Source: Jimgerdemannia flammicorona (lineage: Eukaryota). Taken from it: a DNA stretch of 33,270 nucleotides. The notes beneath the pieces were generated by a model, which saw nothing but the letters and a program-made list of their open reading frames with translations, ran no database searches and was not told where the DNA came from. Of this stretch, positions 1 to 30,389 are shown in pieces. The translations under genes and the position numbers were made by a program. Within the stretch, counting starts at the first letter, position 1, and each line of letters begins with the position of its first letter. The stretch covers positions 1 through 33,270 of the forward strand of contig RBNJ01000318.1 of assembly GCA_003990765.1 (NCBI GenBank), in the 5' to 3' direction.

Positions 1-2042
1 ATCTTTGGCCTCCTCAAGCATGATTTATATTTGCCAAGTGCTGATACTATTTGCAAAGATGTCCTAGAGGCTTATAGGAAGGAGCACGACAATCTCCACC
101 AGACACTTCAGGTAAAATAAGGGCAGCACTGTGACCTTTGTAAGCTAAATTATACAAAAGAGCTCACCAATTTAACCTCACATTCAATAAGCAGAATTCG
201 GCAGGCAAAATTTCATTTACGATCGACACATGGATATCCCCCAATGCAATTTCGTTTCTGGGTATTACTGGTCATTGAATTGACCTCGATTAACAGCTTA
301 AATCTCTCACCCTTGACTTCGTCAAACTTGCTGGCCCTCATTCTGGAGACAACATCCCAGATACTTTTATTAGTTGTATCCGGGAGCTTAGGATCACCAC
401 CAAGGTAAAAAAGGGGGGCTTACCATCAGGTCGGCATTTTGAGGGAGGTCCTAAACCAAACCAGATTTTATTGATTACTTATTTTCACATAAATTTGTCA
501 ACCAAATATTTCAAGTACAGATTTTGGCCATTATGACGGACAATGCCACAAACAACTCAATATTTTTCCAAGGTTTAGCGGCTAGCCTCAAACAGGAAAA
601 CATGGCCTTCAGTGCAGAAAGCTGCCGTGTGTGATGCCAGGCCCATGTACTGAACCTTGCTGTTCAGGACTATCTTACATACGTAGACAAAACATCCGAG
701 AGAGGAGGGGCCCTGAGTATAATTTTCAAGCTATGCAAACTGGTTGTATCAGTCCGATCATCCCCACAACGATGAGACAAATTCACTGCATAGTATAGAG
801 CAATCAGTTTAGCCCCGAAAGAGCTTATATTGGACATCTGTATGCATTGAAACTCAACATTTGCAATGATCCAGCGCATACTGGAGTTTGCTGTGGTATG
901 TATCCTTTTTTTCTTCAGTCGGCTGAAGCAACTGTTTCAGATGATGGAAGATTTATTTTAAAAAAAAAAAAAAAAGCCAATAGATTCAACGATGGCTGCC
1001 GACAAGGAAATATGGGCCGAGGCTCTAGGTGAAAGTGAGTGGGACATACTTAGGAATGTTATCAGAGTTTTGGAAGTAAGTGGTGGTTGCTCTGACTCCA
1101 CACTCATTTTGTCTGCCTCTGCACAGTGCAACACCTCACCACATATAACTACCAGTGTTTTGATGATTGTATGAAGGATATAGTCAAACAAATGACCCCG
1201 ACAATAAGCTCTGCGATACTGGTATACAACCTTCTGATTGACCAGCTAGAGGACAAGCTCGAGGATAGGCTGGAGGGTTGCAGTGATTTACGGTTAAGCT
1301 CGGATCAGAGAGATGCCATGGTGGTTGCTCTAAGCAAGCTTAGAAAATACTACACCCAAACAGATACTGCCATATACTCAATTAGTACAGGTATGTCGAT
1401 GTCGGCGTATGGCTATTGCCCCTTCCAAAACAGAGGAAACCCCGCAAAAACTCACTCTCCCTTTCTTCGAACAGTGCTGAACCCATGCTTAAAGCTACAA
1501 TACCATAAAGATCAGGGCTGGGAGCAGCACTTCATTAAGAGAACCAAGCAGGCCATAATTGAAGTATACCGGAAAAACTATGCACTGCCGCAAGGTTCTG
1601 GCCGAAGTCTGGACGAATATGCCAAGGGATCCCTCCTGTCCCACATTTACTTTGGCAGAAAGAGGAAGAGGGAGCCATCAGTGGAAGAGCTGCCGTCAAT
1701 AGATGAACTTATCATTTACCTCACTAGCGACCGCGTGGTCCTGCTAAAGGGCACAGAGGTGCTCAACTGGTGGAAGGTGGGTTATCAGACGAGCGTTGGG
1801 CCAATTTAACCCACCAATCTAACCACCGCTCTACCCACTGGGGCGTGCAGCTACGTCAAATGGACTTCCCCAGCCTGTGTGGTATGGCTCGGGACTACCT
1901 GGCGATTTCTGCCTCCAGCGCTCCTATTGAGCGGGTGTTCTCAGGTAGGGTGGACCTCGTTGCCCCAAAGAGGTGTACGCTGAATGCTGAGACAATCCGG
2001 GTGTGTATGTGTCTGAAGTCTTGGTGGGGCTCGGGCCGCTAA
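1..2042 (+). pseudogene. hAT-superfamily transposase, 5'-truncated by the window edge and inactivated by nonsense mutations; exons about 1-111, 195-404, 521-895, 977-1075, 1156-1390, 1475-1776, 1851-2042
   Basis: GT-AG splicing gives hAT motifs: KISFTIDTWISPN..FLGITGH*ID (first Asp), GPHSGDNI, IMTDNATNN (second Asp), C-x2-H-VLNL, LILDICMH*NST (decayed TRWNST), ESEWDIL, VLNPCLKL, and the C-terminal dimerisation region WWK..FPSLCGMARDYLAISASSAPIERVFS (catalytic Glu). In-frame stops at 276, 291, 632, 848 and others. Confidence 0.93.
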
Positions 2043-2189
2043 AATTCGGCAGATCCACGGATAGTTGGTTGGCCTTGTGGAATATTTAATACCTTTCAAA
2101 TTAATAAAAAGGAAAAAAAATCTGAGAACTTGGCCCAGAGTTTGCAGCCAAAGTGGGGTGGGGTTGGCAGCAGCGGCAGCAGAGAGGGC

Positions 2190-2515
2190 GTGCAAGGGGC
2201 AGCCCCAAGCTGCCAGTGCCTGGGTCAGTGGGCAGGTCGGTGGGCGGATCGGTGGGCAGGTCGGCAGAGGGAGTGCACAAAATTTGTGGCCCTCCGCCGG
2301 CAGTAAGGAGCAGCCCCAAGCCGCAAGTGTCCAGGTTGGGGGGGGAGGCGGAGGGAGCGTGCAAAATTTGCAGCCCTCCACCAGCAGCGAGGGGCAGCTC
2401 CAAGCTGTCAGTACCCGGGTCAGTGAGCAGGGTTGGTTGGCGGGTGGGGCAGGTGGAGGGAGCATGCAAAATTTGCAGCCCTCCACTAGCAGCATAGGGG
2501 CAGCCCCGAGCCACC
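2190..2515. repeat. GC-rich degenerate tandem repeat, about 3.5 units of 84-111 bp
   Basis: CAAAATTTG(C/T)RGCCCTCC at 2278, 2362 and 2467; GCAGC(C/T)CC(A/G)AGC at 2199, 2310, 2394 and 2500. Confidence 0.85.
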
Positions 2516-3255
2516 AAGGAGTCTGGGGTGGAGGGTGCTTCTGGCAGTCGGAGGGTGCTTCTGGCGGTTGGAGGGCATTTCTGGCAGTCGAAGTTGCCAG
2601 TTTGGATCCCACGGGTACCCTGGCCCTGCGCCACAGTGCTGCACTAGCGGCACTACAGAGCAGGGCCGAGGGGCCAGTAGGGCCCTGCATAACAGCTAAG
2701 CTAGTGCTACATAAGAGGTGCTCGGCCCAACTCCCCTACATAAGACTGCCCAACCCGCACAAAATGGCAGCCTAACCCTTACAAAAGATTGCCTAACTCT
2801 CACAAAAACTGCTCCACCCACTGGTCCCAGGCCTTGATGAGTCTGTCATCTGTTGTGAGTGCGACAACTGTTGTGTCTGAGCTCTCCTCAAAGGCGACGG
2901 TGCCGTGGTGGTCATGTGGTTAGAACAGGATGGCCATGTTGACCACAAATGGGACCCCGAAACCATAGGTGAGGTCATACCAGACTCTGCCGCTATTCTC
3001 CCAGGTTGGGTCCTTCTTTTCCGGGACGTAAAACATTACCGGGGTGATGTTGTTGTCTGTGTATGTGGGTAGAGAGAGGTTGCGCCTGACATATCCTAAT
3101 GTAACATGAGTGTACGGTTGGGTGAACCCTTGGTCCAGGACCTCATACTGCCAAGCTGTGCTAGTAGATGCCTGCCCTTGGTCCAGCCCTGGGAGCCCCA
3201 GCTTGGAAACCTGCCAAAACAGACAGCAACTGGTCAGTCCTTTTTGCATTTGGGG

Positions 3256-3302
3256 GCAGAAACCCCCCGGGCTGCAGAAACCCCCCGGGCTGCAGCACCC
3301 CC
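3256..3302. repeat. 18-bp tandem repeat (GCAGAAACCCCCCGGGCT x2.5) in intron 4 of the cargo gene
   Basis: Direct inspection: copies at 3256, 3274 and a partial copy at 3292. Confidence 0.9.
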
Positions 3303-4059
3303 AAAAAAGCGGAACTCCTCACCTCATACGGTATGCTAAATTGCACCAAGAATGTACATACAGCTGTGCCGAGATCACCACCAAGCTGGCCTACCATATG
3401 CTTTACCAATCTGCTCAAAGAACCCCAGATCATAGCCATCATCGCTGCACAGGCCGTGTCATGCTCACGTGCAGTTTGCTCTTCGACGGTACTTCTAAAG
3501 TTCCGGTAGGGATACAGAATCTTGTGCATCCCTGGAATTGTGTCAAAAAGAGTATATCGGCGAAGAGTGTGATTTATCTGGGGAGGGGTTAAAAAAAAAG
3601 GGAGACGAGTGCAGGGGATTTCGGAACCCACCCTTCACCAGTGTTGCAGTATACCCAATTCCCATCCAAACCCCCCCTCCTTACTTTTTTCGCCCCCTCT
3701 TCCCTGCCATCCGGTATTTGATGCAATCCTCGCAAATCTCGTTGATATGGTGGCGAAGCTCGTCACCATAGAGATTCCTTACCACCATCGCAACCACCTC
3801 TCTATGTTTGTTAATAAAGATATGGTTCTCTTCGTCGTTGGTTACTCCTGCTGGCCAATGGACCCCTTGGTCAAGTACGATTGGCTCTGATTCGAATGTA
3901 GACCCCCAAGCCTTGATGATGATGCTAGTACTGCTCATGCTGAACATCTTGTCCTTAAATTTCTCTATTTGATCAGATGCCAGACGTGGTTGAACTCGGG
4001 TAACTTTGAACTCTCCTTTCCAATGGAACTGAGCCCTGATCTGAGGGACTGAGATAAGT

Positions 4060-4310
4060 ATGCGGACGGGTTGCATGCAGGCGGGTTACATGCGGGCGGG
4101 TTACATGTGGGTGGGCGGGTTGCATACGGACAGGTTGCGTGCAGGTTGTGTGCGGGTGTGGGTGTTTTTTAGGGGAGACCATATAAAAATGAAATTAAAT
4201 AAAACACGGAGATGGGTATTTCAGAAAAAGAGCGTGAGTGAGTGAGCTGCATACCAACGAGTTGCATGTCGACGAGTTGCATGCTGACAAGTTGCACAAG
4301 TTGCACAAGA
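4060..4310. repeat. Two ~15-bp minisatellites (GGTTRCATGCGGGCG-like at 4069-4150; GAGTTGCATGYYGAC-like at 4244-4310) in intron 2 of the cargo gene
   Basis: Direct inspection; both share a GTTGCAT core. Confidence 0.85.
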
Positions 4311-5038
4311 ATTGCTCACGAAGGCTTGCTTCTGTTCCTTTTGAGACCTCTGCCATATGATGCATTGACTCAACAGCTCAGCCACCAAAGGCATGCCCTG
4401 CAACGTCTGCCAGCCTTTCTTCATCTTGACCAGATGTTGCAAATAAAGTCGGCAGATCTCGCCGTAAAGCTGTGGACCCTAAGAAAAGTATGAGATAAAT
4501 TGGGTCATGCTGGGGAAGTTTAAATAAATAAACACAAGTAAACAAGTAGTGGCCGAGTGAGCAACCTACATCTACTATCGGCTGCTCCAAAAAGGCTGCC
4601 GTATACATAGCTGTGAGGTCTGTGAATTCCGAGGTCCGAAGGGCCGCCATGAGTTGTTGCCAGAATTCTCCCTCATCTCTGCCATCACCATCGCTATTGC
4701 CACTGCCACCACCATCACCCCTTTGGCTCTTAATGAGCAGCTTGTGTACTGTCCATATGAGAAAGAATCTAACATTGTCAGCAGAGAGTGCGTTTCCACC
4801 TCGAATACTCCCTCTTTTGATGATCATTGCAGGGTGAAAAATGAGTAGACTGGACCAACGTATGAATTAAGGACTGCTGTTTTGTTTGCTCATGATGCGG
4901 CAGGAAAAAACAAAGAAAAAGAACAAAGAAAAGAGAGGGAACAAAGGAAAGGGTGATGTCACCAAAGTGCAGCAGAAAAAAAAAACAAGAGTGAAATAAA
5001 CAAAAGAAAGAGTGACATCACCAAAGATTTCAATCTGA

Positions 5039-5200
5039 ATGGATCAATCCAGATGGGTCAATCCGGATGGATCATCCAGATGGATTATCCAGATGGATCA
5101 ATCTGGATGGATCAATCCGGATCAGATCACAAGACCAATCCGAGTTGATTCGAATCCATCACATAATGAATCTGAATCGAATCTCATCCAGATCAACTCC
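5039..5200. repeat. Subterminal repeat array: six 13-14 bp copies of ATGGATCAATCC(A/G)G (5039-5120), then GATTCGAATC / AATCGAATC motifs
   Basis: Direct inspection. Short reiterated motifs near an end are typical transposase-binding sites of hAT elements. Confidence 0.85.
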
Positions 5201-5217
5201 ATTCATTCGGAGTACTA

Positions 5218-6420
5218 CATGCTACTAAAGGAGAAGTACCTCCATTAGGACAGAATATACCTACACAGCAACAAACAGTTATCTATTAAGCCCTCACTCC
5301 AGATCCACAACTACTACTCCAGCAACTTACACAGACCCAAAGAACCCCATCATACTCTGCACCAGTACCTCAAGTAGTATCAGTAACACCACTACCAGCA
5401 GTCCAACTATCTCCAGTAAACAACATGATGAACCAACAGATTCTAGACCTCACAGCCCAAGTAGCTATAATGGCAGCAACCATTACTGCCTTAGCTGAAC
5501 AGACTCGACCTACCAAAAATCTGAGCCTACCTACCTTCAATGGTACTGCACAAGAAGTCCAAAGCTTCATTAGTGTAGTTAACACCAACTTTGAAGCCAA
5601 TCAATGGACTAATGAGCGAGTCGCTGACCATGTTCTGACAAACAATCAAGACCACACTCTGGAACAACTCTTTGCTACTACTACAGCCTATATCCGCCAA
5701 GTTGTTACATTCTTCCGAGGACCTGCTGAAGAATGGTGGCAAACCCTTCTTGAAAAACCCCTCATATGGGATACCTGACCTACAGTAGTTCCCAGAATGC
5801 TGCAAACAATACCCCAGGATATGGAGCCTATCCTGCAGCCCCTGGACTCAAACAACTCATGATTGCTCAATACTGCAGTGAAACCATGATTGCTAAATCT
5901 CGAGTAAAACTCCACAACCTCAAATTTGATATATATGGCAAAGAAGAATTCGAAACCTTCTGTACAAAACTCGAGTCACTCCTGAACACTGTTGGCCTAG
6001 GATACATCACCAATGATGAAGCATGAAATGGTACAAGAGCAGACCATTTATTTGATGCCCTGCCTGAATGGCTTACTAGAAAAATCCGAGAACAAGGCCG
6101 CCCAGTTGGTTGTGATCACCAACAATGGTGCCTGGCAAGAATCAAGACCATGGTCAAGCGAATCCTAACAGCTGGACCAATTCTGCCCTGAAGGCAATTC
6201 AACAACAAGGAAAAGACTTGGACCAAGAAAGAAGAACACAAGCATGAAGCATCCCGAGCTCCCTCCACATCCACCTCTTGGACACCCAGAAATCCTGAAC
6301 CCACCCAGCCCAGTACCTTCAAGAAACTTACTGAAGGTGAAAGGAATGAACTTCGAAGAAGTGGAGCATGCTTCTATTGCTGAAAGATAGGATACATGGC
6401 CAGTGCCTACCCCAACTGAA
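5218..6420 (+). pseudogene. gag with zinc knuckle
   Basis: LPTFNGT..VQSFI, FFRGPAEEWW, KLTEGERNELRRSGACFYC*KIGYMASAYP (decayed C-x2-C-x4-H-x4-C at 6369-6410); one frameshift near 5775 and several stops. Confidence 0.85.
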
Positions 6421-6479
6421 AACCCCGAACAGCAATACAAGCAACTGTTACCACTCTTTACCACCTCAACAACCTGACT

Positions 6480-6900
6480 ATGAGAATACTAGACTTTGTC
6501 AAGTTAAGACAAACTGCTAAGGCCCCAACCAAAGGAAGTCAAAAAGCAGCTGGATATGACCTGTATGCAGCCGAAGAAGCTATAGTTTCTAACTGAGAAG
6601 TCAAACAAGTGTATACAGGAATTAGTATCCAAATCCCTGAAGGACATGTTGGAAGAATATGCTGTCGCAGCAGCCTAGCGTTGAAAGGACTCTCAGTAGA
6701 AGGAGGAGTCATTGATGAGGATTACACAGGCGAAATTATTGTCCTCATCCGAAACCACAGTTGGACACCCTTCAAGATCCCTATTGGTTTCTACATTGCC
6801 CAGATCCTATTCGAAAAAATTGAGTCAACTCTGATAGTCAAGGAAGTCCCTGAACTACTGCCCACCATCTGAGGATCCAAAGGATTTGGCTCATCAAACA
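6480..6900 (+). pseudogene. dut: Trimeric dUTPase domain of the retroelement polyprotein
   Basis: All five motifs are in one frame: AAGYDLYA, GRICCRSSLA, GGVIDEDYTGEI, IAQI and (R->stop)GSKGFGSS. It shares its frame with the upstream CCHC knuckle and the downstream protease. Confidence 0.95.
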
Positions 6901-7109
6901 AGGCCCCAGTCCAACCTACCATGAGTAAAGAAGAATAATTCTACAAGAAGATCGAAGATGGATATGTACCAAGTGGCCAATGCCCTCATGGTATTGGAAT
7001 ATACTCTTCCCGAATGATTGACAATTGCTTCTCTTGTATCAATGAACTGGCTCAAAGAAGAACCAACAGAAGAAAGGCTCCTATAACTGAAATCACCACC
7101 ATTGGATCA

Positions 7110-7450
7110 GACAAACTGCTCACCCTTAAGGCTTTTGTCAATGGAGCACCTATCAAGATTATGATAGACAGTGGTGCCTCAGACAACTTCATCAATGAAG
7201 AGACAGCCAACAGACTCAAGGTCTTCACCTCTCCAGTACAGTAAACTCAAGCAGTTGCTACAGCTGATGGAACCTCACATGTTATTAGCAAAGAAGTCTG
7301 CAATCTACCCTTCCGAATTGGTGACTACTGAGTATATGTTATCCTCCAAATCATACTACTTTCTGACAATGAAATCATCCTTGGGACTCCATGATTAAAA
7401 CAAGAAAACCCCATGATTGATTGGATAAATCATTCTCTGACCATCAAAAA
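7110..7450 (+). pseudogene. Retropepsin (aspartic protease) domain
   Basis: IMIDSGASDNFI, VATADG and IILGTP*LKQENPMIDW (typical gypsy ILGxPWLxxxNPxIDW). Confidence 0.92.
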
Positions 7451-7679
7451 AGGATACCACAACTTCAAACTACAAGGTGAAAAGGACCCACTCAACTCTA
7501 GTGACCCTGGACCAAAGATCACCCACATCAACAAGCTACAACTCAAGAAATTAGCCAAGAAATGTCCTCTCTTCACCATCTCCATCCACCCATCCAAAGG
7601 AGAACCCCAGAACTCTGAAGAAGACTTTTCCAAAGTTGACAGCCATGTCAGATCATTACTCCAGAAAGTTTGAGACACA

Positions 7680-7770
7680 TTTCTGAACTGAACCACAGAA
7701 CCACCTGCACCTGTCATTATTGATGACCAAGAAAAGTATGAAGTTGAACAAATCCTCAACAAATACAGCC
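7680..7770 (+). pseudogene. Chromodomain N-terminal remnant
   Basis: FLN*TTEPPAPVIIDDQEKYEVEQILNK matches the PPPV..EYEVExIL start of chromovirus chromodomains; the YLVKW..TWEP core is not visible. Confidence 0.75.
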
Positions 7771-7854
7771 ACAAGAACCATCCAAATGGTACAACAACAC
7801 CAGAACAAATTAGAAGGCCCCGACAAGGATGTCGAAAGCTAAGAAGGGGAGAGT

Positions 7855-8924
7855 TGTAAGCGCACAACCTCCAAGCTACCAAAATCGCATGGTATTCTCA
7901 GAACTAATTTGGAAACCACATGCGAGACTACAAAACAAGAGATCACCTGGCTATATGAAATATACCAGCAAGTATGAGAACCCACTGCCAAGATATAAGA
8001 ATACTAGAAGAAATACTATAACTATAAGACTGACTCTGAACTGCTATAACTAGTTTGGTGTACTGTACTATTACAAAAGGAAATCAAAAGTACCAAACTC
8101 AAATCGAGACAAGAAGAACCCTATCTCATCTACCAAAAGGTTCATGAACTGTACTTATCAACTCAAGACCAAGGTACACTATGACTATATAAGACCTCAT
8201 TACTTAGCAGAAGCAAAACACATTTGAATAACTCCATTCACTCTATCTGTGTCACCTCCGTTGGAGAGTGATAGATACTTTATCTGAACTCAAGAAAGCT
8301 GACAATGTCGAAACCAATCTCAAGCCATCCATGTGACAGATATTACTACTAGAAATTGCTTCGGATTACAGAAAATATCATTTCTGAGAGGTTCGAACCC
8401 CCAGCCGCGACATTGGGAGCCCTTGCCCTAGACAAGAATGGCCAGTCCTCACAAATACACCAGCAGACCAAAAAAAAAGAGAACCAAGACCTGTTATCCT
8501 TGTACAACTACTGCCACCAAAGATAGTCTTAATCTTGCAAGAGATAGAAGTGATGACATCTTGAAACTGATGATGTCAGAAGTCAGAAAACTGTTCAGAC
8601 TTTGCCAGTGATGATGTCATCAATAGTGATGTCATCAAAGACTACCCAGACAGTGCCTAAACCCATAAATAGCTTAGCAGTCATAGTATAGATAGATTAG
8701 TCTTGTATGACATAACTGTGAACTGACTCAGCAGTCAGACGATCTCTTGACATGTCAGATCACACTTGTACTACATGACTACATTCCAACTCAGCAAGGC
8801 ACTAAGTACTACATCCATATCTAGCATAGTCCAGATAGCCCCTCACTAGTATAAATACCCCCTCCCCCAGACCTCAGAATCTCAGATTTGAACATACAAG
8901 AACATTTCTGAATACTTCCTCACA
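7855..8924 (+). repeat. Putative 3' LTR of element 1 (~1.07 kb)
   Basis: Starts TGTAAG directly after the PPT; TATAAATA at 8850; CRE-like motifs at 8571-8634; candidate end CTCACA at 8924. No second copy in the window, so the right end is uncertain. Confidence 0.6.
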
Positions 8925-9376
8925 ATATCCCTTCACATAACTACTCCTAGTATAGCAATATCATGAATAGCAATTAAACCTATTTAATAACCCTCAAACT
9001 ACTCTTAAGTAAATCCACTTCCCATTAGGTCCTACTCCTAACCCCATCATGAAATTTCCTAATTGGGTATTGTCTACAGCAATATGCCAATTCAACTAAG
9101 CTAGTCTTAGTTTCTTGAACTTCCTGAAATACAGAAAATCCTAAACATCCAGAACTAGTCCGAAAAGGGACTTTGGTTGAGACTCAACCCAAACTTGAAA
9201 TCAATAAGCATAGAGGACATACTCCATATAAAATTGATCTTGACCATAAGAAAATGGTCTTCCAGAATATCCAGAACTTCTAGAAAACCCCTCCAGAACT
9301 ACGTAACAGTTACCATAAAAAATAACCCTCTTACACTCAAGGATACCCCAAAATACCTCTATCAAGACTACTTAAC

Positions 9377-10624
9377 ATGAATAAGGAGCTATACTATGGA
9401 TTAATCAGCTACTTTGGGCAGCGGAAGATGCCCAACCACCTTGAACCCTGGACAATCACCATCATCAACCAGACTTGGAAACAGTTTAAATTAGACAATA
9501 CTATACTCAGAAAAGGAGGAAAGCTAGTAATACCTGAATATAAGAAGTATCAAGTAATGAAGGAAGTACATGAGCAAGGATATTTAGGAGGAACCAATAC
9601 ATATAATAAGGCAAGAAGAACCATGTGGTAACCCAAGATGGAAGAAGACCTGTGCCAATTTGTCAAAGGGTGTGATAAGTGCCAAAAACAGAAACAAGAT
9701 CAGCAAGACCAGGCACCCGGATCATCAAGAATTGAGCTTATCTCCTTCTACCACATTACAATGGATATCATTGGACCACTACTAGTAATACTATCAGGAA
9801 ACCGCTATATTATAGTTATTGTAGACCTCTTCACCAAATAAATAGAGGCAGGAGTATTACAAGAAGCCAATGCCCTCTCTATAGCTGATTTCCTATACTG
9901 AGAAATCATCTACTACTACAAGACACCAAAGCAAATCACAACAGACTACAGCATAGAATTTGCCAATGGATTCCATGAGATAATGTACCAGAAATACAAG
10001 ATCCAGCACATCAAGACCACTGCATACCACTCTCAAGGAAATGGACAGACAGAGAGAACCAACAAGACTCTCAAGAACATCCTAGCAAAGATCTCAGAGA
10101 CATATGAGAATTGAGATAACTATCTCCCAACTGCCCTCTCTGTTCTATGAGACATACAGTCACAGAGCACACATTTTACCCCAAGAGAGCTGCTTTTTAG
10201 AGAAGAAGATTCTAATAGAACCTCAGCCATAAATCTAGACCTAACTTGGAGATGGGTTGATGCAAAAATCTGGAGACTATACCAAATCAGAAAGAAGGCT
10301 GAAAATTACATCACTAAGTTACAAGCACTGATAAAGAAGAATGTGGAAAAGAATCACAAGGCCCTAGAATCCATCTGAATTGGAGAAAAGGTTCTACTAT
10401 ATTGAAATATGGTAGAAGCCTCATGATCACAAAAACTGGAGCCCAAATGGGAAGGACTCTTCTATATGCAAGATATCAAGGGAACTACCTTCTGGCTTAG
10501 AAAAATCTCAAGGACTATACTGCCTACCATAGTACATAGGAACAGACTCAAGAAGTACTATGAACCTATACAAGAGAAGCAAAATGTGATGACTGCCCAT
10601 GAGGTTCTAGTCCGCGAATCATAA
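9377..10624 (+). pseudogene. Gypsy-type integrase as a free-standing ORF (element 2) with multiple nonsense mutations and no frameshift
   Basis: HHCC remnant (HEQGY..W*PKM..CDKC), MDIIGP..GNRYIIVIVDLFTK*, ITTD, TTAYHSQGNGQTERTN (DDE), and KLEPKWEGLF..VHRNRLKKY (GPY/F module); begins with its own ATG. Confidence 0.93.
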
Positions 10625-10937
10625 CAGCATGTCCTGTGACCAACAGACTATCTGTCTGGACCATTCTCTAAGGGATATGGTACTGGCAACTACTCATCCG
10701 TGAGACTTTCGCAGTCAGAGGAGTTTGAACCATCAACTGATTGGTCAAGATCAGAATCAGGCCCTTGCTCTATATGAAGGGAGCGACCCTTCACCATCAC
10801 GCCAAAATACAAAGAGAAGATGCCAGCCCATAAACACTAGTTTTCGACCCCTTGCCAGAGGTTATGGGATCAGTAAATTTTTCAGGACTGGACCAATGAA
10901 TAAGGATGCTCAGGAAGATTCTTATTCAGGAGGAAGA

Positions 10938-12392
10938 TGTAATGGTGACCCCAGAATGATGACATCAGCACAGGAGACAGCCTTTCCTTATAAGCCACCA
11001 GATCAGAGCATAAGAAGATCATACAGTATACGAGATGAGCAATAATGACCAACTGTGAGTCATTGTGACCACAGCATGAGTATCCTGAAGAATATAAAAG
11101 AAGGATCAAGAAACTGCAGTAGCAGCAACCAACAAGAATCACCAATCCCAAAATAGCTCAAAGACTTACCACAAACAAAATGTCTACTGCCCGCCAAACC
11201 TCAAGGTCAAGAAATCACCAAGGTATCTTAGTCGAGGAAAGGATATTCCAAGACATCAGAAGAGCCATGAGAACCTACTCAAGAAGGACTCTTAGCATCA
11301 ACCTGGATACTGCAGACTCTTATCACTTTATTCTCTACTGCTGTGAAATGGAAACAAGGATCACCATTGCTATCAAATGCCTCCAAATGTGGCAGGAGTA
11401 CAAAATAGGAAACCTCCTCTACCGGGAGTTCCCACAGACCAGCACCCAAGAGCTACAAGATGCCACTCCCATGAATATATACGAAACAAGGACAGCTAGG
11501 AAGATCCATCAGATCTTCAGGTATGTACTATGATCAATCTCCAACTTGGAATATGTTAGAGTCTCAGATTTCAGAGACCTATCATCCCACCATATCAATG
11601 CACTAGAAGCCAGAGTGACTACAGAAGCCCAGTCCACTATCACCCTCAACAGCAAAGAAGTAGAAGACTTCTGGCATCCTATCCTTTAGGACAACCCAGA
11701 TCAATTCCTGCAAGGATTGATCTCAGTATTCTAAGGCCCAAGTATCCAGATTAGATCTCCCCAAGACCCCACATTTGTTCCTTATTTTGTAGAAGAGAAC
11801 CTCATAGACTGGAGAGCTCCAGACCTTGTCCCCGATTTCCCTGCCACAGCCGAATGTGATGACGTCATCAATGACATCATCTCGTGTAACATCGAAGTAT
11901 GCGAAAACGACAAATTCGCAGATCTCATCTCCTTCAGTAATGATGATAATAAAGCCCCCATAATCCTGAACTTTCTGCTCTAAGTTCTTTGTTACACTGG
12001 ATAATGCCAGCACCAGCATTCTGAGGTGACACAAAATTATTTCAGCACTGGTATTTTGATGTGATACTAAATAATACCGGTCCTAGAACTTAGTAGTTTT
12101 AGTTATTGGAATTTATATTTAGCTTTATATCTTAGCAACCATTGAATTATATTTTGTATAATACCTCTCTTATTTCCTCTGAAATAAAGTCAGTTCTGGT
12201 TTCACTTACACACACTTCCTTACAAGCAATCTAAGAGATAACAAGACAGTTAAAGATAAGAAGTTTGAGGACTATAAGATCTTGGGAAGGCACTCCAATA
12301 AGAACTTGCTTATAACAACTTGAGTTAGTCTAAGAGATACACCTTGAAGAGAATCTGGCATATTTGAAGGACTCAGCGACCACTACGTGACA
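10938..12392 (+). repeat. Putative 3' LTR of element 2 (~1.45 kb)
   Basis: Purine tract AGGAGGAAGA (10928-10937) followed by TGTAATG; ends CGTGACA at 12392, exactly where CpG depletion stops; TATAAAA at 11093 and AATAAA at 12183. An alternative start (TGTTAC at 11990) lacks a PPT. Confidence 0.55.
11180..11983 (+). pseudogene. Accessory ORF of unknown function in element 2 (268 codons, three internal stops)
   Basis: The 117-aa ORF continues in frame through TGA 11531, TAG 11686 and TAA 11731 to TAA 11981-11983; TATA box 87 bp upstream; acidic C-terminus. Confidence 0.6.
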
Positions 12393-12605
12393 ATATGCGT
12401 ATACGCCATTCATGCGTTTCAATATACGTCATAGAATACGGGCGAATACGAGCGCAGGGATTTAGATATGCGTATACGCCATTCATGCGTTTCAATATAC
12501 GTCATAGAATACGGGCGAATACGAGCACAGGGATTTGGATGTATGCTTCATGCGTTTCATTGTATACGGGGGTACGCCATTCATGCGCAATTTCAGTGTA
12601 CGCCA
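12393..12605. repeat. 73-bp tandem repeat (two near-identical copies plus a degenerate third)
   Basis: ATATGCGTATACGCCATTCATGCGTTTC...GGGATTTRG at 12393-12465 and 12466-12538 with 2 mismatches; fragments continue to about 12605. Confidence 0.95.
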
Positions 12606-14459
12606 ATTTGTTAGTAGAAAAGGAAGTAGAAAAAACCTGTTCATTCGCGATAGACTAAGAACTAACCATCATTTGGGTATTCTAAATTTTACGTGGCAGC
12701 CAAGTTGACGCGTTTTAGATTTCTTCACAAATCGGCCAACCGACTATTTTATTCACAAAGGGTGAGAGTGAGTGCTGGTCAATTATCCCTGCTGGCATGA
12801 GGCTCCTAGCAAGTTTCCAAATCCCTTACGAAAGTCCTTTCCATATGGATGAACCATCAACTGTTTTCGCTGTGTGCCGTTGAACGCCTTCACCTGTTAT
12901 ACTTTCGACAGCATGCAATATAATTATATCGGTACTTCACAGAAGGAGTGCTGCTCTTCCAACGGCCACACCGGTTTGGAAGTTGCTGGCCGTTAGCTTG
13001 TATTCCTACTTGGCCTGGAGCACAAGAAGCATTATGAACTCTTTTTAAGGTATGGAATGTGGTATTGAACATATATTATGATGAACGAGGGAAGTAGACA
13101 GTTATAAAAAAAAAAAAGGGAGTGTATTCATGTCCGCTTGTTCACTCACGCTTCCACACGGTCACCTCTAATCAGTACCACGATCCTTGCCAAAGCTGGA
13201 CTCTGCGACATGATCAACAACGATTCTGCCGGACCTATGGCGACTATCTGGGGACTAATCCACTTTACATTCAAAAATAAAATAAATAGCACACCACGTT
13301 GCGGGACTACCGTGGTCGTACCTGCGACAAAGGTTTCTCGCTGTGGCGCCGGCAAGCGTCGACAAGGTAGCCATCGAGAGTGATGGTCAGCTGTAATAGG
13401 TGGAACGGGACTACGGAGGCTCGAGATGCATATACGGTTGCAAGCGACTGCTTATAGAGCGAATTGTAAGATGTATATGGAGCTGCCCGAGGTCGATATG
13501 TCTGAGGGTTAGACAGGAGGTACAGCTTCAAGGGGTTAATGCTCAGGGAGGATGAGTTGTGATTAGTTGATTGAGCAGAAAGATACGCGATGTAAACAGA
13601 TTTGGTGGAGAATACACCGTTGGAGAAGGATTTGCTGTCGCGTTACGCTTCCACCTTTTCGTCAGCCAACTCTTTATCACTTGGCGACGATCAATGATAC
13701 ATCACTTTTTTTATTATTATCGCCGACAAACCGTTCAGGTTTTGATGTTGAAGCAAGATGTCATCGTTACGTTCTCTCACGATAGGTTAGCCGCTAGGAA
13801 GCAGCCGCGGGTTAAAGTGCTGTTTGGTACTGTTTGTCAGAATATCAATGATGGTTTCGATAATGACCCTACTTTCTATTTTCCTATTTCTGTTGTAGAC
13901 AGATTGATAGTCTCCCTCAAAAAAAGAGGAGGGATAATGTCTTCTCTCCATGTTATCCTCGTTGGGCCACTCATTATTTACGTGGGGGAGATACATCAAA
14001 GTATTGCTTATGACGGATTCCAGTTTTCGTTTTACTAAAGCGAATGTCGGCTACCATTCTTCAATCAAGTCATTCAAAAACATCAACCACACAGTGGCGT
14101 GGCGTGTGAACTTTTTCTCTCCCCAGGCTTGGAGTATTCAAAGAGGTAGGTAGAATCGACGTTCTGGCCACGCGAGACTAACAACCCCAGCGTGTCCGAG
14201 ACATGTTATCGCCCCGAAGATCGCCGGGCGAGGGTTTCGCTGTTTTTTTTTTTTTTCAAGATGCCCTGATTGACCATCCGAGTCTATCTGTGATTCCGGA
14301 TCAGAAATGCAGAACTTCACGTGAAGAGCCGGAAGGCCCGGCAGTGTCCCCAGGAGTTGCCAGTTTCTTTTGGGTGATTGGTAAAAAATTTGGACTTGAA
14401 CCTCTTTAAGTCCGCTCGTCCCATTCCCCCAACCTCCCTACCCCATACCTCTACTTCGA

Positions 14460-17400
14460 ATGTCTTTGAGAGCCCTCCTCACCTCCCGTACTTTGCTGAG
14501 AACTTCCGCTATATCCCCTATCCCTAAGCAAATGGTACGTGTTCCCATTGGTTTATAGGGCCTGGCGCGGTGGTGATCCGGTGAGGGTGGAATGAATCAG
14601 TGAATATGTTTGTCGCCATATCCATGATACGAATCGGAGCTTTTGAAATGGACGCGCATATACGCTCCTGTGGCCAAAAACCCGATCCAATCTTTGAAAG
14701 TCATAGCCTTTCCAACCTGTCTCGCTAGCGTTCTGCTGATCATATCAACCTCTTTTATTCCGATCACCAACACCTCCAGACCGCAAATACTATGCTTCGC
14801 CGTAACTACACTGCTGCCGCGGTCAGCCTCCCCGCCGACAACTCCGTGGGCCATATGCTCCGTTATCAGAAGGCGATGCCCAAGCTCCCTGTCCCCGCCC
14901 TAGGGGCGACACTGGACAAGTACCTGCGGTCAGTACGTCCGCTGCTCTCGGACGCCGACTACGCCAAAACGGTAGTGGCCGTGGAGGAGTTCCGCGCTCC
15001 CGGTGGGCCCGGCGAGAAGCTACAGGAGCGCCTGCTGGCTAAGGCTCAGGACCCCAAGACCGTGAACTGGCTCGAGGATTGGTGGAACGAACTAGCCTAC
15101 TTTGGGTATCGTGACCCCGTCGTGATCTACGTGAGCTACTTCTTCGCGTACAGGGACGACAGGCTTAGAAGGGCGCCGGCGGCGAGGGCCGCGAGCATTG
15201 CTACGGCCGCGTTGGAGTTCAGGAAGCAGGTTGTCAAGTGAGTAGTGTGTGAGGGAATCCTGGGAGGTGTTGATGGAGAGCGACATCCCATGATGGTCGT
15301 TCGAATAGCATCACCCATCGCAATTCCCATCGCAATTGGTCAGTAGCATCTCGACCGTCTCGCAACCTCGCTCGTTATATTGACTTCCCCGCCTTCCACC
15401 ATAACCGCGCCAGTCAAACCATCGAATACGAGTTCGCCAAGAACGATCCCCTCTGCATGGACTCATATAAGTGGATGTTTAACGCCTGCCGTATGCCCGC
15501 CAAGCCCTCCGACTACGAGGTCGTCTTTGACCCGACCATGCACAATCACATCGTCGTCATGAGGCATAACCAATTCTACGTCGTGGAGACGCAACAGGAC
15601 GGGAGGCAGCTGAGCACCGCGGAGTTGGAGGCGTGAGTATTTTGAGAGTCTGTTTCTGGAGCTATTGGAGGGGGTGTCGGTAGGACGAGAGATGATAAAA
15701 GGTATATTTGTTCGCATTGATAATTGTGTGGCTTAATACATACATTTTATTGACTCTTGCCTGAACTTTCCCGATCCCTTGCAGTCAATTCGCCAATATC
15801 ATCGCTCAGGCTGGTGACAAGAAGGACCCCGCAATTGGTGCACTGACCGCTGAGAATCGTGATGTCTGGACTGACGTGAGTAATGGACGAACGCCCTTTT
15901 GTTATTGGCGTCAAGTCATCCCTTTCTCCGAGCTCAAACCTTTTATGCCGCCTCTTTTTGTTCCGTACGACCCCAACTCACCTGACCGTTCTCTGCCGTT
16001 TTGTTCTGCCAACCCATGCACCTTTCTTACAGTGCCGCGACCTTCTCGTCAAGGCGCATCCCTCCAACAAGGCTGCCCTCGAGAAGATCGAGTCCTCTGT
16101 TTTCCTCATCTGTCTCGATGACACCGCTCCCGTCACCCGTGATGAGGTCTCACGCGCCTGTTGGCACGGCGACGGCCGCAACCGCTTCTACGACAAGAGC
16201 TTGCAATTCATCGTGTTCGAGAACGGCAAGGCTGGGTTCATGGGTGAGGTAGGGGGTCGAGTTTGATATTTTATTGCGGGTTGGGGATTTCACCAAAGAG
16301 AGTGTGATCAAGAGGGGCAAGGTAAAGGCGACGGATGTCTAAAGATATAATAGGGCTGGCGTGACTGGACAGAGTAGACATGGCGATGTTAACCAACTGT
16401 AACGAGGAGTGAATACAAATGCCCCAAATGCTGGTTTACTGACATTTCAACATTCCTATCCAGCACTCCAGCATGGACGGCACCCCCACCTCTCGCCTGA
16501 ATGATTTCGTTTTGACCGAGTATGTGTGCTCTTGTCTTTAGTTAATTCAATATATGTGCGAATACGATCACGCTAAACTCTCAACGTAATGTTACCCCAA
16601 ATACAGGCTTGCCAAGAACAAGATCGACCACGGCTCCCCCCAAGTTCGCTCCAACCTCCCCACGCCCAGCAAGATTCAGTTCCACCTCAACCACGACGTG
16701 CATAAGGCGATCGATTCCGCCTTGCAGACCTTTGACTCGCTGATCGGGTCGCATGACCTGCACGTGCTCGCCTACAACGGCTACGGCAAGAACTTGATCA
16801 AGCGGTTCAAGACCTCGCCTGATGCCTACGTGCAAATGATCATCCAGCTCGCCTACTATAAGATGTTCGGCGTCAGTCGCCCCACCTACGAGAGCGCCCA
16901 GGTCCGCAAGTTCCAGCATGGCCGCACCGAGACCTGCCGCACCGTCTCCCTCGAGAGCGTCGCTTGGGTTAAGGCCATGGAAGACCCCAGCGTGCCTATC
17001 GACAAGAAGGCATTGCTCGGGAGGGAGGCCATCAAGAGCCACATCAAATACATGACTGATGCCGTGGAGGCGCATGGTGTGGACAGGCATTTGCTCGGTA
17101 GGTTTTACCAGCTTGGTTTACACTCCTGGGTATACTTTTATTCACGACTCCAACTACAATTGTCATCGTCCTATTTCCCCACACAGGTCTCCGCCTCTCG
17201 CTCAAGCCCGACGAGACGAAGCCTGCACTCTTCACGGATCCCGCCTACGCCTACTCATCGCACTGGTACCTATCAACGTCGCAGTTGACATCGGAATACT
17301 TTGAGGGCTACGGATGGGGCGAAGTGCAGCCGGATGGCTTCGGCATTGCCTACATGATCAAGAACAACTCCCTGCACTTCAACGTGGCCAGTGTCAAGGA

Positions 17401-17533
17401 CCTGACAGTGCACGGCACCAAGTACGTTGCCGGCACGCAAAAGATGCGCGCGTACCTGGAGGAGGCGGCGGACGATATGCGGCACGTGTTCGAGGCCGGG
17501 TTACCTGCGGAGCCGATCAAGGCTAAGCTTTAG
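14460..17533 (+). CDS. CAT2: Carnitine O-acetyltransferase, mitochondrial/peroxisomal; exons 14460-14534, 14780-15237, 15414-15632, 15785-15875, 16033-16248, 16464-16519, 16607-17097, 17187-17533
   Basis: MPKLPVPAL, NWLEDWW..AY, GRNRFYDKSLQF, GE|HSSMDGTP (catalytic His), SPDAYVQMIIQLAY, TYESA..F.HGRTET, WYLSTSQ and GFGIAY; all junctions are GT-AG and in frame; Arg/Leu/Ser-rich leader; C-terminal AKL. Confidence 0.96.
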
Positions 17534-26811: not shown

Positions 26812-29146
26812 ATGGCACCAGCACCTTCAGGAAAAATTCAGTTGAAAACCACGTAAGTTGACGGTTCCTTCTTAGCACATGACAAGGAGGCGACGAAAAT
26901 TCTGACACAACTCTCACAGGTTCACATCTACGCAAACGATCGAGTCTATATACACTGGCGGTAAGGCTACCTTCTCACCAGACGAGAAATGGTTAATTAC
27001 GATAGTGGGAGAGGATATTGACATCACAGAGGTGGACACTGGGAAGAAGGTCTACCGGTTAAAAGGGGTATGGAGAGTCAATAGTTTTTAGTGATATTCC
27101 TACCGTTCGGATCAGAAGGAGGCTTAGTACCATTTCTGTCCTTTTTGTGTATTTTTTTATTTTTTTATTTTTTATTTTTTAATTCAGGATACTGAGATGA
27201 TTACCACATTCGCCATCAAACCCGACGGCCGTTACCTCGTCAGCGCGTCACGTTCATTAGTGATGCGAACTTGGGACCTCTCCACCGGCCAGATGGTGAG
27301 GAGCTACAAAGCTCACGAAGCGCCGATTATCGTAATGGACGCTGACCGTACATCGACGCTGGTGGCCACGGGTTCGGCAGATAGTACGGTTAAGGTATGG
27401 GATGTTGACAAGGGATATTGCACACACAATTTCAAAGGTCACGGCGGTGTTGTTAGTGCAATCAAATTCCATCCGGATAAGCACAAGTGGATATTAGTGT
27501 CTGGGGCGGATGATTGCCAGGTTCGGGTATGGGATTTAATGAAGAGGAGGTAGGTTACAGTCAATATATCGCTGGTTCCTACATACCCTGAAGAAATATC
27601 ACCAACATATCTTAAAAATTTGCATTTGCAGCTGCATAGCCGTCTTGGAGAGCCATGTGTCGGTGATCCGCGGTCTCGATTTCTCTCATGACGGCTGGCA
27701 TCTAATTTCGGGCTCGCGCGACAGAGTGGTAAATGTATGGGATTTAAAACAGAAGAAGCTACTGCGCACATTCCCGATTTACGAGGTTAGTTTTACATCT
27801 TCAATTTCATTGGATCCTTGCCACGCTAAGCTTTGCATTCAAATGGTACATATAATGGCTAACGTTGAGATAACTTATTATGAAATAACCCCTTCAGACG
27901 ATAGAAACGGTTGGTTTATTAGTTCCCGAAACACAAATGGAGGGCGATAAGAAGCCCGGAAGAGAGCTATTTTACACCGGCGGTGATAAAGGTATGTGGT
28001 TAAACGGCTGGCTTTAGTCTGAAGGGTGCCAAGATTTTGGTAGTTGGACCATCGCAATTTTTATGCATTCCAACGTTAAAATATATATTGGACACTATTT
28101 TATACCACTTCTCGATCGTGCATTAGGCGTGATTCGGGTATGGGATTTGGCGAATGGTGAGCTAGTCAAAGAACAAACACAAGAAAAAAACAGCAAACAC
28201 GCGATCTCGGATATAATGTATGTGATGTATGTCTTGATTCTGGCTGATTGTAATTCTATTAATTGTATGTTCGCGCTTCTGAGACACTATCCAATGCCAC
28301 AATCCAAATGACCTTTTCCAATACAGATATGCCAAAAAATCAAACCGCCTCGCGGCCGTCACAAGCGACCAAAACATCCTCATCTACGACATCCTCTCAG
28401 GCCTGCGTCGCATAAAACAAATCGTGGGTTACAACGACGAGGTTATTGACGTTGCCTATTTGGGCGAAACCGAAGATCACCTTGCCGTCGCGACGAACAG
28501 CGAACAGATTCGCGTCTTCAACATCAAGAGCTTTGATTGCGATATCATCTACGGCCACACCGATATCGTCCTCTGTCTCGGCCGTTCCCGCGATGGCCTC
28601 GTCTTTGTTTCGGGGTCGAAAGACAACACCGCTCGCATCTGGGCCGTGAATACAGATCATTCTGACTTGGACGCTCGTTATCGATGCGCGGGTATTTGCG
28701 TCGGCCACACTGAGGCCGTGGGTGCTGTGGCGATGTCTCAGAAGACGACAGACTTTGTGATTACCGGTAGCCAAGACCGGACGATCAAATGTTGGGATTT
28801 ATCCAAGCTTGATCTTTCTGGCCCAACATCCGACGAGGAGCCGGCGAAACCGAAATCCATGTACACGATTATAGCCCACGATAAGGACATCAACTCGATC
28901 TGCGTGGCGCCTAACGACAAGTTTTTGGCGACCGGGTCGCAAGATAAGACAGCCAAGGTGTGGAACGTCGAGACTGGCACGTTACTAGGTACTTGTAATG
29001 GGCATAAACGCGGCGTGTGGTGCGTGCAGTTCTCGCCAGTGGATCAAGTGTTGGCGACGAGTTCGGGGGATAAGACAATTAAGATCTGGAGTTTGAAGGA
29101 CTTTTCGTGTTTGAAGGTGAATGAAGCGGCTTTATTGCATGATATT

Positions 29147-29201
<55 letters not shown>

Positions 29202-30389
29202 AAACTGAAGTCTCGCCGTTATTGTATCGTATCGTATCGTAGTAAACCGCTTTGGCCCTCTCACCTACTTTATACCTCTAACTACCATGTCGGTCTTCAT
29301 CACAGACATTCGAAGGCCACACCAACTCGATCCTCAAAGTTGCGTTCCTTACGTCAGGCATGCAGCTCGTCTCCTCGGGCTCCGACGGCCTCGTCAAGCT
29401 GTGGACGATCAAGACTACCGAGTGCGTCACCACACTCGATAACCACACGGAAAAGATTTGGGGCTTGGCTGTACGGCATGATGAGCGTGTGGTGGTGTCG
29501 GGCGGGGCGGATTCGATGATCAATTTTTGGGAGGATCAAACGGAGGAGGAGATGGAGAAGGAGGCGTTGGGGAAGGAAGAATTAATTCTGAAGCATGTAT
29601 TTGATGTCTTGTAGCCATCTGTCTTCCAGCTATCTGTCTTCCAGAGAATATCACACACGGTAAAGCTTTGACGATAACTTACTCTTCATCATTTCTCTTT
29701 TTTACAGGGAACAAGACCTCCAGAACTATCTTCGCAAAAAAGACTATCACAACGCTATTCTCCTCTCCCTATCCCTCAACCAACCACACCGTTTGCTCGG
29801 CTTGTTTACGGAGATCATTAGCATGCGGGAGGACAAGGACAGCATCACAGGTTCCAAGTCCGTTGACCAGATTGTCGAAGGCATGACGAATGAGCAGGTG
29901 GGTGTTTGACAGACAATGAAGTCGACCAGTGGTTGACAATTTTACGAATTTTTGGCTAAAATACTACTATGCTTTTCGCTTGCGCAGCTGGAAAAATTGT
30001 TAACGTATATTCGTGACTGGAACACGAACGCAAAGCACGCACGTACAGCACAGACAATACTCAATGCAGTGTTGCACGGGTTCACGTCGGAGCAATTGTT
30101 GGAAGTGAATAATGCGAAGGAGGTTGGATATTTTTACATAAACTACTGTATTTTATTTCGTTTTGTGCTTTGATTGCATGCATATCGGCCCAATATCTGT
30201 TTACTGATTTAAATGATTGCCTAAACTCGATAGTTCATCGACGGTCTCATTCCGTATACAGAACGACACTACCAACGACTCGACGATCTTATCACTCAAT
30301 CTTTCATTGTCGATTACACGCTGCACGCGATGGATTTGATTGATCCGGTTGGGAAAAAGGTCGAAGTAGATGGGATTGAAGAGGATTGA
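26812..30389 (+). CDS. UTP13: U3 snoRNA-associated WD40 protein Utp13/TBL3; exons 26812-26852, 26920-27067, 27188-27549, 27632-27785, 27898-27991, 28127-28217, 28327-29116, 29306-29592, 29708-29897, 29988-30122, 30234-30389
   Basis: N-terminal IYTGG; GYCTHNFKGHGGVV; GYNDEVID..HLAVATNS; AHDKDINS..PNDK..ATGSQDKTAK; C-terminal Utp13 domain IRDWNTNAK..AQ and LIPYTERHYQRL..VDYTL..MD. Confidence 0.96.

Follow-up and report, generated by a model that had tools for sequence, protein, structure and literature searches.

Can a hAT DNA transposon carry its own eraser of the DNA mark with which its host silences it? This question was raised by one end of contig RBNJ01000318.1 of Jimgerdemannia flammicorona, a stretch of 33,270 nucleotides (nt) referred to here as the window. 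The original prediction, made from the sequence alone, had described in this region a hAT transposon whose cargo is a decayed gene for a TET/JBP-like dioxygenase, i.e., an enzyme using Fe(II) and 2-oxoglutarate (2OG). Our analysis supports this cargo interpretation, which we consider likely. Specifically, a fungal multi-copy hAT transposon probably fills positions 1-5217 of the window with its right-hand ~5.2 kb and bears two convergent genes, of which the second would encode a TET/JBP-like Fe(II)/2OG dioxygenase.

The second gene lies downstream of the hAT transposase and tail-to-tail with it, on the opposite strand. Five minus-strand exons join via GT..AG introns into a single frame running from an ATG at 4827-4825 to a TGA stop at 2802-2800, a total of 481-494 codons, in line with the ~480-codon convergent gene that had been assembled from five scattered open reading frames (ORFs). 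All four predicted introns are bounded by GT..AG and keep the frame. Exon 1 (4570-4827, 86 codons) is an open frame that starts with the ATG and ends at the donor gtaggt, and exon 2 (4320-4478, 53 codons) lies in phase 0 between the splice sites ..tcttag and gtgagc; both are covered by other copies of the element. Exon 3 (3632-4040 at its longest) and exon 5 (2803-3210) encode what would be the N-terminal and C-terminal halves of the dioxygenase domain, respectively, and each has a relative in other assemblies, as described below. Between them lies exon 4 (3323-3577 at its longest), an open frame with the donor gtgagg and a choice of two acceptors, ..ccccag or ..ttccag; searched alone, it returned no homologue. 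The exon 3/4 junction was thus modelled in two ways: in model A, position 3639 is joined to 3577 across a 61-nt intron, giving exon 4 as 3577-3323 and a gene of 494 codons, while in model B position 3632 is joined to 3531 across a 100-nt intron, giving exon 4 as 3531-3323 and 481 codons. The C-terminal ~340 residues of the product would form an Fe(II)/2OG dioxygenase domain like those found as cargo in DNA transposons of fungi.

Two metagenomic relatives, P0001 and P0002, bear on whether this gene is real. P0002, a 136-residue ORF on an 823-bp metagenome contig, was the one of six exon 5 candidates that held up in a search of a 5.8-billion-protein collection; it aligns to exon 5 without gaps at 79% identity (E 1.4e-65), and by tblastn it matches the window at 3195-2806. 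P0001 was the sole relative of exon 3 found among 1.84 billion representatives (E 3.3e-15), and a pairwise comparison gave a gapless alignment of 119 residues, 38% of them identical (E 1e-25). Both ORFs come from contigs shorter than 1 kb, and each forms a cluster with no other member. A longer-reach protein search with exon 5 yielded 77 candidates, none at E<=0.001; a near search with a profile (A2) yielded 110 candidates, of which P0002 alone was confirmed; and of the pattern matches in two scans of JGI metagenome contigs (111 and 63), none was confirmed. Such scarcity of homologues, together with the lack of any Pfam match to the exons, would suit a reading in which these frames of a decayed repeat are open by chance and the HxD...H pattern is coincidental. 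However, the two relatives are independent ORFs from other assemblies that align without a single gap, P0002 carries exactly the residues that had been predicted (see below), and all four introns keep the frame between GT..AG borders. We therefore give the chance reading a negligible probability and consider it refuted by the P0001 and P0002 alignments.

The same relatives identify the lesions of the window copy. At 3061-3063 on the minus strand, where the first iron-binding His is expected, the window has TAC (Tyr), and at 2920-2922 an in-frame TAA interrupts exon 5; the Tyr precedes the His of the H-G-T motif by 52 residues. These positions and the spacing are exactly those originally given, along with the forecast that an intact relative would have His for the Tyr and Gln for the stop. 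P0002 has both: it reads ..S-L-P-T-H-T-D-N-N.. and ..L-F-Q-P-H-D-L-H-G-T.., with the H-G-T His 52 residues after the H-T-D His, which restores P-x-H-x-D...H-G-T. In this one independent copy, then, neither the Tyr nor a true stop is kept, an outcome that would have refuted the prediction. The iron-binding triad H-x-D/E...H is accordingly present in the family, as H-T-D...H-G-T in P0002, whereas in the window copy Tyr replaces the first His and the stop falls between the two motifs. One more in-frame TAA lies at 3681-3683 and had been taken for the end of exon 3. This proved incorrect: P0001 has Glu at this position and aligns across it without a gap, and the conserved stretch G-G-G-x-W-x-G-I-x-Y-T, common to P0001 and the window (..GGGVWMGIGY.. 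in the latter, which also has ..VVAMVVRN.. in this exon), follows it. The alignment thus marks exon 3 as conserved coding sequence and the TAA as a nonsense lesion, so that the exon bounds were corrected and the gene bears at least three disabling changes. P0001 still resembles the window (G-x-F-x-x-P) for ~8 residues past the model A donor, at 3615-3638 (minus strand), and exon 3 may therefore be longer than in either model, or else P0001 reads into its own intron.

The Tyr codon and both TAA codons are each one G:C-to-A:T transition away from His or Gln-type codons. We compared the window, positions 1-5400, with metagenome contigs from four public runs (X1, X2, X3 and X5), which represent other copies of the element. 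The numbers of fitting contigs were 2007 in X1 (with identities mostly of 90-99%), 79 in X2, 70 in X3 and 117 in X5, establishing the sequence as multi-copy. Transitions far exceeded transversions in all four runs (574/21, 436/18, 402/31 and 606/29, respectively), bearing out the claim that the C-to-T class dominates this region. At 36 of the 40 best-supported differences (the best 40 of 1038, outside which sites 3063, 2922 and 3683 fall), G/C in the other copies corresponds to A/T in the window, and at one of these 36, site 3098, the contig majority gives Ser, as in P0002. By context, the 36 window-specific changes comprise 15 at CA, 10 at CC, seven at CG and four at CT. The observed/expected ratio of CpG is 0.51-0.54 in the element and 0.21 in a neighbouring retroelement, compared to 1.0-1.2 in the host genes of the window. 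Because CpG is depleted in both transposons and normal in host genes, deamination of methylated cytosine fits these data better than repeat-induced point mutation (RIP); the pattern fits methylation-linked deamination of transposons. Classical RIP was considered as the mutation source and ruled out (TpA/ApT 0.68-0.82, (CA+TG)/(AC+GT) 1.39, mixed contexts). The Tyr in place of the iron ligand, the TAA codons and the stops in the transposase, described below, all fit as results of this G:C-to-A:T transition load.

As to the class of the enzyme, the positive evidence comes from the ESM Atlas, whose results we treat as leads, its feature and structure searches counting as one source, and from motifs. 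By language-model features, the top two matches of P0002 were unnamed Basidiomycota clusters (0.95 and 0.93), followed by a 'Tet-like 2OG-Fe(II) oxygenase' cluster (PF20515 in 72% of members) that scored 0.91 and shared 178 of 256 features, which exceeds the 170 quoted as usual for genuine members of a family. The score was 0.88 for a cluster in which 11% of members have Tet_JBP, and all ten best family-bearing matches fell in one family or clan. Exon 3 matched nothing in the Atlas above 0.76. Structurally, the Atlas model of P0002, with a predicted template modelling (pTM) score of 0.59, retrieved 2OG-Fe(II) oxygenase clusters in eight of the ten rows listed, with template modelling (TM) scores by query of 0.54-0.63, and one of the structural clusters has Tet_JBP in 28% of its members. 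Motifs were compared by eye with the TET domains in Table S1 of a survey of transposon-borne TET/JBP genes (Kojima 2025, Biology 14:1741, PMC12730594; cited here and below from excerpts of the article and its supplement), which distinguishes PU, AG and PE types. In the excerpted rows, PU-type domains, including those of hAT7 elements, appear to have G-G-x-[MV]-W-x-x-G-[WY] in common with our dioxygenase, as well as P-x-H-x-D-x-N with a hydrophobic strand after it whose last residue is P, and PE-type domains appear to have V-x-M-V-x-R-[DN], [QK]-P-x-x-[LW]-H-G-T and a terminal T-x-x-R-L in common with it.

Several results weigh against a TET/JBP assignment. In TET2, JBP1 and the PU-type domains, the 2OG-binding Arg lies ~15 residues after the second His; as had been conceded from the outset, it is not to be seen here, the window and P0002 both reading ..SSDTTVVALTTDDRL.. 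instead. The sole conserved Arg lies 21 residues after the second His, in ..DDRL.., a layout that the PE-type rows of the excerpt show as well by eye. Pfam at E<=10 reported no family, be it Tet_JBP (PF12851), 2OG-FeII_Oxy_6 (PF20515) or any other, on any dioxygenase exon, on P0001 or on P0002, so that the profile check proposed for the repaired exon 5 (searched with its stop read through as X) came back empty. Sequence and profile searches of the PDB produced spurious WD40-like matches alone, at E>0.08. The AlphaFold2 models, whose mean predicted local distance difference test (pLDDT) values were 31.7 and 46.7 owing to the scarcity of homologues, are of too low a quality to speak for or against the fold, and so are the unrelated proteins that fold searches with them returned. 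Finally, the motif comparison was made by eye, on partial rows of the published table, and the Atlas structural rows match prolyl 4-hydroxylase (P4H), HIF prolyl hydroxylase and 2OG-FeII_Oxy_3/5 clusters as well as they match the Tet_JBP-containing one (0.61). With prolyl-hydroxylase-type families fitting about equally, the fold by itself does not point to TET/JBP in particular.

These findings leave room for a 2OG-Fe(II) dioxygenase of another class, whether prolyl/lysyl-hydroxylase-like, AlkB-like or a small-molecule oxygenase, that the transposon picked up and that would have no role in DNA demethylation. The even spread of structural matches, the lack of a hidden Markov model (HMM) match to Tet_JBP or PF20515 and the non-conserved position of the classical Arg would all suit such an enzyme. 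Yet the best named feature match is to a basidiomycete Tet-like cluster, with the ten best family-bearing matches confined to one family or clan, the N-terminal and HxD-flanking motifs match by eye those of PU and PE transposon TET domains in the excerpted table, and the dioxygenases reported there inside fungal DNA transposons are all TET/JBP (PMC12730594). We thus regard a dioxygenase of another class as unlikely and favour membership in the TET/JBP group, which is suggested by the Atlas leads and by motifs seen by eye and was reached by neither a significant profile match nor a significant fold match.

We next turn to the carrier. The transposase pseudogene occupies 1-2042 on the plus strand, where the window edge cuts it so that the 3' two-thirds of the gene are present; it is spread over several frames and contains in-frame stops. 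Pfam placed the hAT C-terminal dimerisation domain, Dimer_Tnp_hAT (PF05699), at 1845-2024 (E 7.4e-12; bit score 45.3, cut-off 21.4), and found no other family on the transposase pieces. By eye, hAT-like catalytic-core motifs can be recognised in ..SFTIDTW.., ..MTDNATNN.. and ..CQAHVLNL... Two of the stops fall within 144-443 (..GITGH*IDLD*QLK..), at sites that we take to be usually Trp in hAT proteins, and a third is found at 632-634, just ahead of ..CQAHVLNL... Together with the lesions in the dioxygenase gene, these stops make both genes pseudogenes; the window copy is dead and unable to make either protein.

Between the convergent genes lies a GC-rich spacer (2043-2802) with short tandem repeats, in which Tandem Repeats Finder located arrays at 2223-2264, 2530-2590 and 2734-2812. 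Within 2096-2531, the contigs from other copies either lack 79-253 nt or have 147-300 nt repeated, yet go on at both sides, so that the length of the spacer varies within the family. This part of the spacer, 2096-2531, is made of longer repeated blocks. Beyond the ATG of the dioxygenase gene, a subterminal array of a palindromic ~13-nt motif of the GATCCATCYGGAT type, with a period of 14 nt, occupies 5033-5122 (6.1 copies by Tandem Repeats Finder). At up to two mismatches, the 13-mer has 12 matches in the window, 10 of them inside this array, compared to a chance expectation of 1.58, and none of 100 shuffled sequences reached 12. An array had been announced for 5039-5200: it is real, yet it ends at ~5122, and what follows is a terminal stretch (5123-5217) that contains the right end of the repeat unit (..GGAGTACT, then A). 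Here other copies run into unrelated sequence, after 5216 in X1 and after 5217 in X3, and a different repeat begins at 5228 in X3 and X5. The right terminus of the element is thus at 5216/5217.

Is the hAT in fact the carrier of the dioxygenase gene? Of the 30 bins into which positions 1-5400 were divided, the contigs cover every one in runs X1 and X5 and 29 in runs X2 and X3, including both genes, a pattern that fits one repeat unit holding the two. Other copies also run from the 3' end of the transposase into the spacer, as in one X2 contig (record 13), which spans 1581-2118 and joins on to 2198. The hAT superfamily is characterised by short terminal inverted repeats (TIRs) and an 8-bp target site duplication (TSD; 7 bp for hAT7), and its elements typically bear arrays of subterminal repeats just inside each end. 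Counting against carriage by the hAT, the window opens inside the transposase and has the right element end alone, leaving TIRs, TSD and co-linearity within one pair of ends beyond its edge, and the contigs are short (150-620 nt), with none across both genes, so that co-linearity in the other copies is an inference.

These points are shared by an arrangement in which the dioxygenase gene and 5033-5217 belong to a second element, beside or nested in a hAT that ends at ~2050-2800. The left TIR is outside the window, no single contig spans transposase and dioxygenase, the spacer between 2100 and 2800 is repetitive and variable, and one GATCCACGGAT motif, noted originally near 2052 and located by us at 2052-2062, resembles the subterminal motif. 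This motif, however, is a single copy with no array near it, whereas a hAT would be expected to have an array inside each end; the contigs of other copies run not merely into the spacer but across its deletions; and among the loose ends listed, long unrelated sequence is found at 5180, 5216 and 5217 alone. A second element therefore seems improbable to us. The position of the dioxygenase gene supports carriage by the hAT: with the transposase on one side of it and the repeat unit's end on the other, it lies where a hAT passenger gene would be expected.

The remainder of the window is fungal-looking nuclear DNA with short GT..AG introns. A decayed retroelement (5228-12100, plus strand) adjoins the hAT end, comprising a gag-like ORF, an aspartic protease, an integrase zinc-binding domain, many stops and a dUTPase at 6420-6869 (E 1.2e-20). 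A search of 5200-14000 for a candidate pair of long terminal repeats found no direct repeats with a length of at least 60 nt, and since in other copies the sequence ahead of 5228 differs, the retroelement is truncated or interrupted there. Past it, AT-rich non-coding DNA contains two tandem 73-nt units that are 97% alike (12393-12538). Host genes with normal CpG content lie at 14729-17533 and 27128-29614; one encodes a carnitine/choline O-acyltransferase (Pfam E 5.7e-60), and the other a multi-WD40 protein of the WDR3/Utp type, flanked by long poly-T/poly-A runs at ~29150-29200.

What might the enzyme do for its element? By analogy with CcTET and with published transposon-borne TETs, the protein of intact copies would use the His-x-Asp...His triad, Fe(II) and 2OG, and may oxidise 5-methylcytosine on the element's own DNA. 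Such oxidation could counter methylation-based silencing of the element and, in addition, slow its subsequent C-to-T decay. The window copy would then have lost its iron ligand and gained its stops through the same G:C-to-A:T decay that the enzyme would otherwise hold back. If mobile elements have their own erasers of a host silencing mark, the TET/JBP genes borne by transposons are the clearest candidates, and with every independent capture by another transposon lineage it becomes more credible that the enzyme works for the element and not for the host. The present locus contributes a hAT whose gene arrangement is different and whose dioxygenase domain is missed by standard profiles, and annotation pipelines consequently overlook such genes. 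P0001, P0002 and the window locus can seed a profile for finding this divergent group, a practical value that is modest.

Compared with canonical hATs such as Ac, hobo, Tam3 and the fungal Restless, which have the dimerisation domain, the catalytic-core motifs and short palindromic subterminal repeats, the window element is alike in its dimerisation domain, its core motifs and the subterminal repeats just inside its end. It differs in its second gene, as canonical hATs, to our knowledge, encode a transposase only. The pairing of a hAT with a TET/JBP gene, which had been thought undescribed, turned out to be published for hAT7 elements of the rust genus Puccinia (Kojima 2025). The excerpts of that survey describe TET/JBP genes in complete elements of 11 DNA transposon lineages, hAT among them, with 20 TET-bearing hAT7 families in six Puccinia species that have 7-bp TSDs and PU-type domains, and propose escape from methylation-based silencing as the role of these genes. 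For Agaricomycotina and Pezizales, the excerpts list no hAT carrier.

The hAT7 elements resemble ours in being multi-copy hATs with a transposase and a TET/JBP-type dioxygenase gene (HxD...H), for which the same anti-silencing role is proposed. In the excerpted description of the hAT7 families of lineage P4, the TET gene lies upstream of the transposase and is co-oriented with it, whereas the window gene is downstream and convergent. The termini differ as well: hAT7 sequences in the excerpted Table S1 start with CAACGGTGGG or CAGCGATGGG and have GCTACAC-type subterminal repeats, while the end of the window element reads TAGTACTCCG on its inward strand and is accompanied by GATCCATCYGGAT repeats. 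In the first 400 characters of each cell of the supplement, the termini of the window element had no exact match, the short peptide motifs being all that was shared.

By eye, and within the excerpted rows, the domain fits none of the three published types cleanly, for which the triad H-x-D/E...H is given as the sole set of conserved residues (legend to Figure 7, PMC12730594). The motif ..R-[IL]-G-[FL]-S.., with the Arg that PU-type domains retain, appears to be absent from the window protein. The AG type and Coprinopsis CcTET (Kyakuja/Zisupton-linked, PF20515) are likewise basidiomycete transposon-linked 2OG dioxygenases, and the nearest named Atlas cluster carries PF20515; in contrast, the window family has no PF20515 match, does not match the AG motifs ..P-F-H-R-D.., ..H-G-V.. 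and ..D-R-x-x-x-x-x-Y as excerpted, and is carried by a hAT and not by a Kyakuja/Dileera/Zisupton (KDZ) element. The PE type, described from Zisupton, EnSpm, Plavaka, IS3EU and Helitron elements of Agaricus, Laccaria, Gymnopus and Pezizales, has three motifs in common with our protein, lacks the PU Arg and is likewise barely detectable by sequence, the excerpts giving HHpred e-values of 1.4 (CMD1) and 19 (NgTET). Its hallmark, however, is HxE, against HxD in the window family, the excerpts report no PE gene in a hAT, and the N-terminal GG-x-V-W-x-G-I-G-Y of the window protein looks more PU-like.

Relative to the excerpted survey, what remains new is thus the convergent downstream arrangement, the different termini and a domain that is missed by Pfam and, judged by eye, belongs squarely to none of the three types. 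The host is probably not a rust, given that the Atlas taxa are Basidiomycota and that relatives occur in runs labelled soil metagenome. It is conceivable, and we suggest it tentatively, that the locus represents a fourth transposon-borne TET/JBP-like type, captured independently by a hAT lineage outside rust hAT7 in a soil-dwelling, non-rust fungus. Such a type may be marked by HxD as in PU and AG, by a C-terminus that is PE-like and has no classical 2OG Arg, by going undetected with the Pfam profiles Tet_JBP and 2OG-FeII_Oxy_6, and by an additional N-terminal extension of ~140 residues. If true, this would extend TET passenger genes of hATs beyond Pucciniales and add a capture event to the eleven published lineages.

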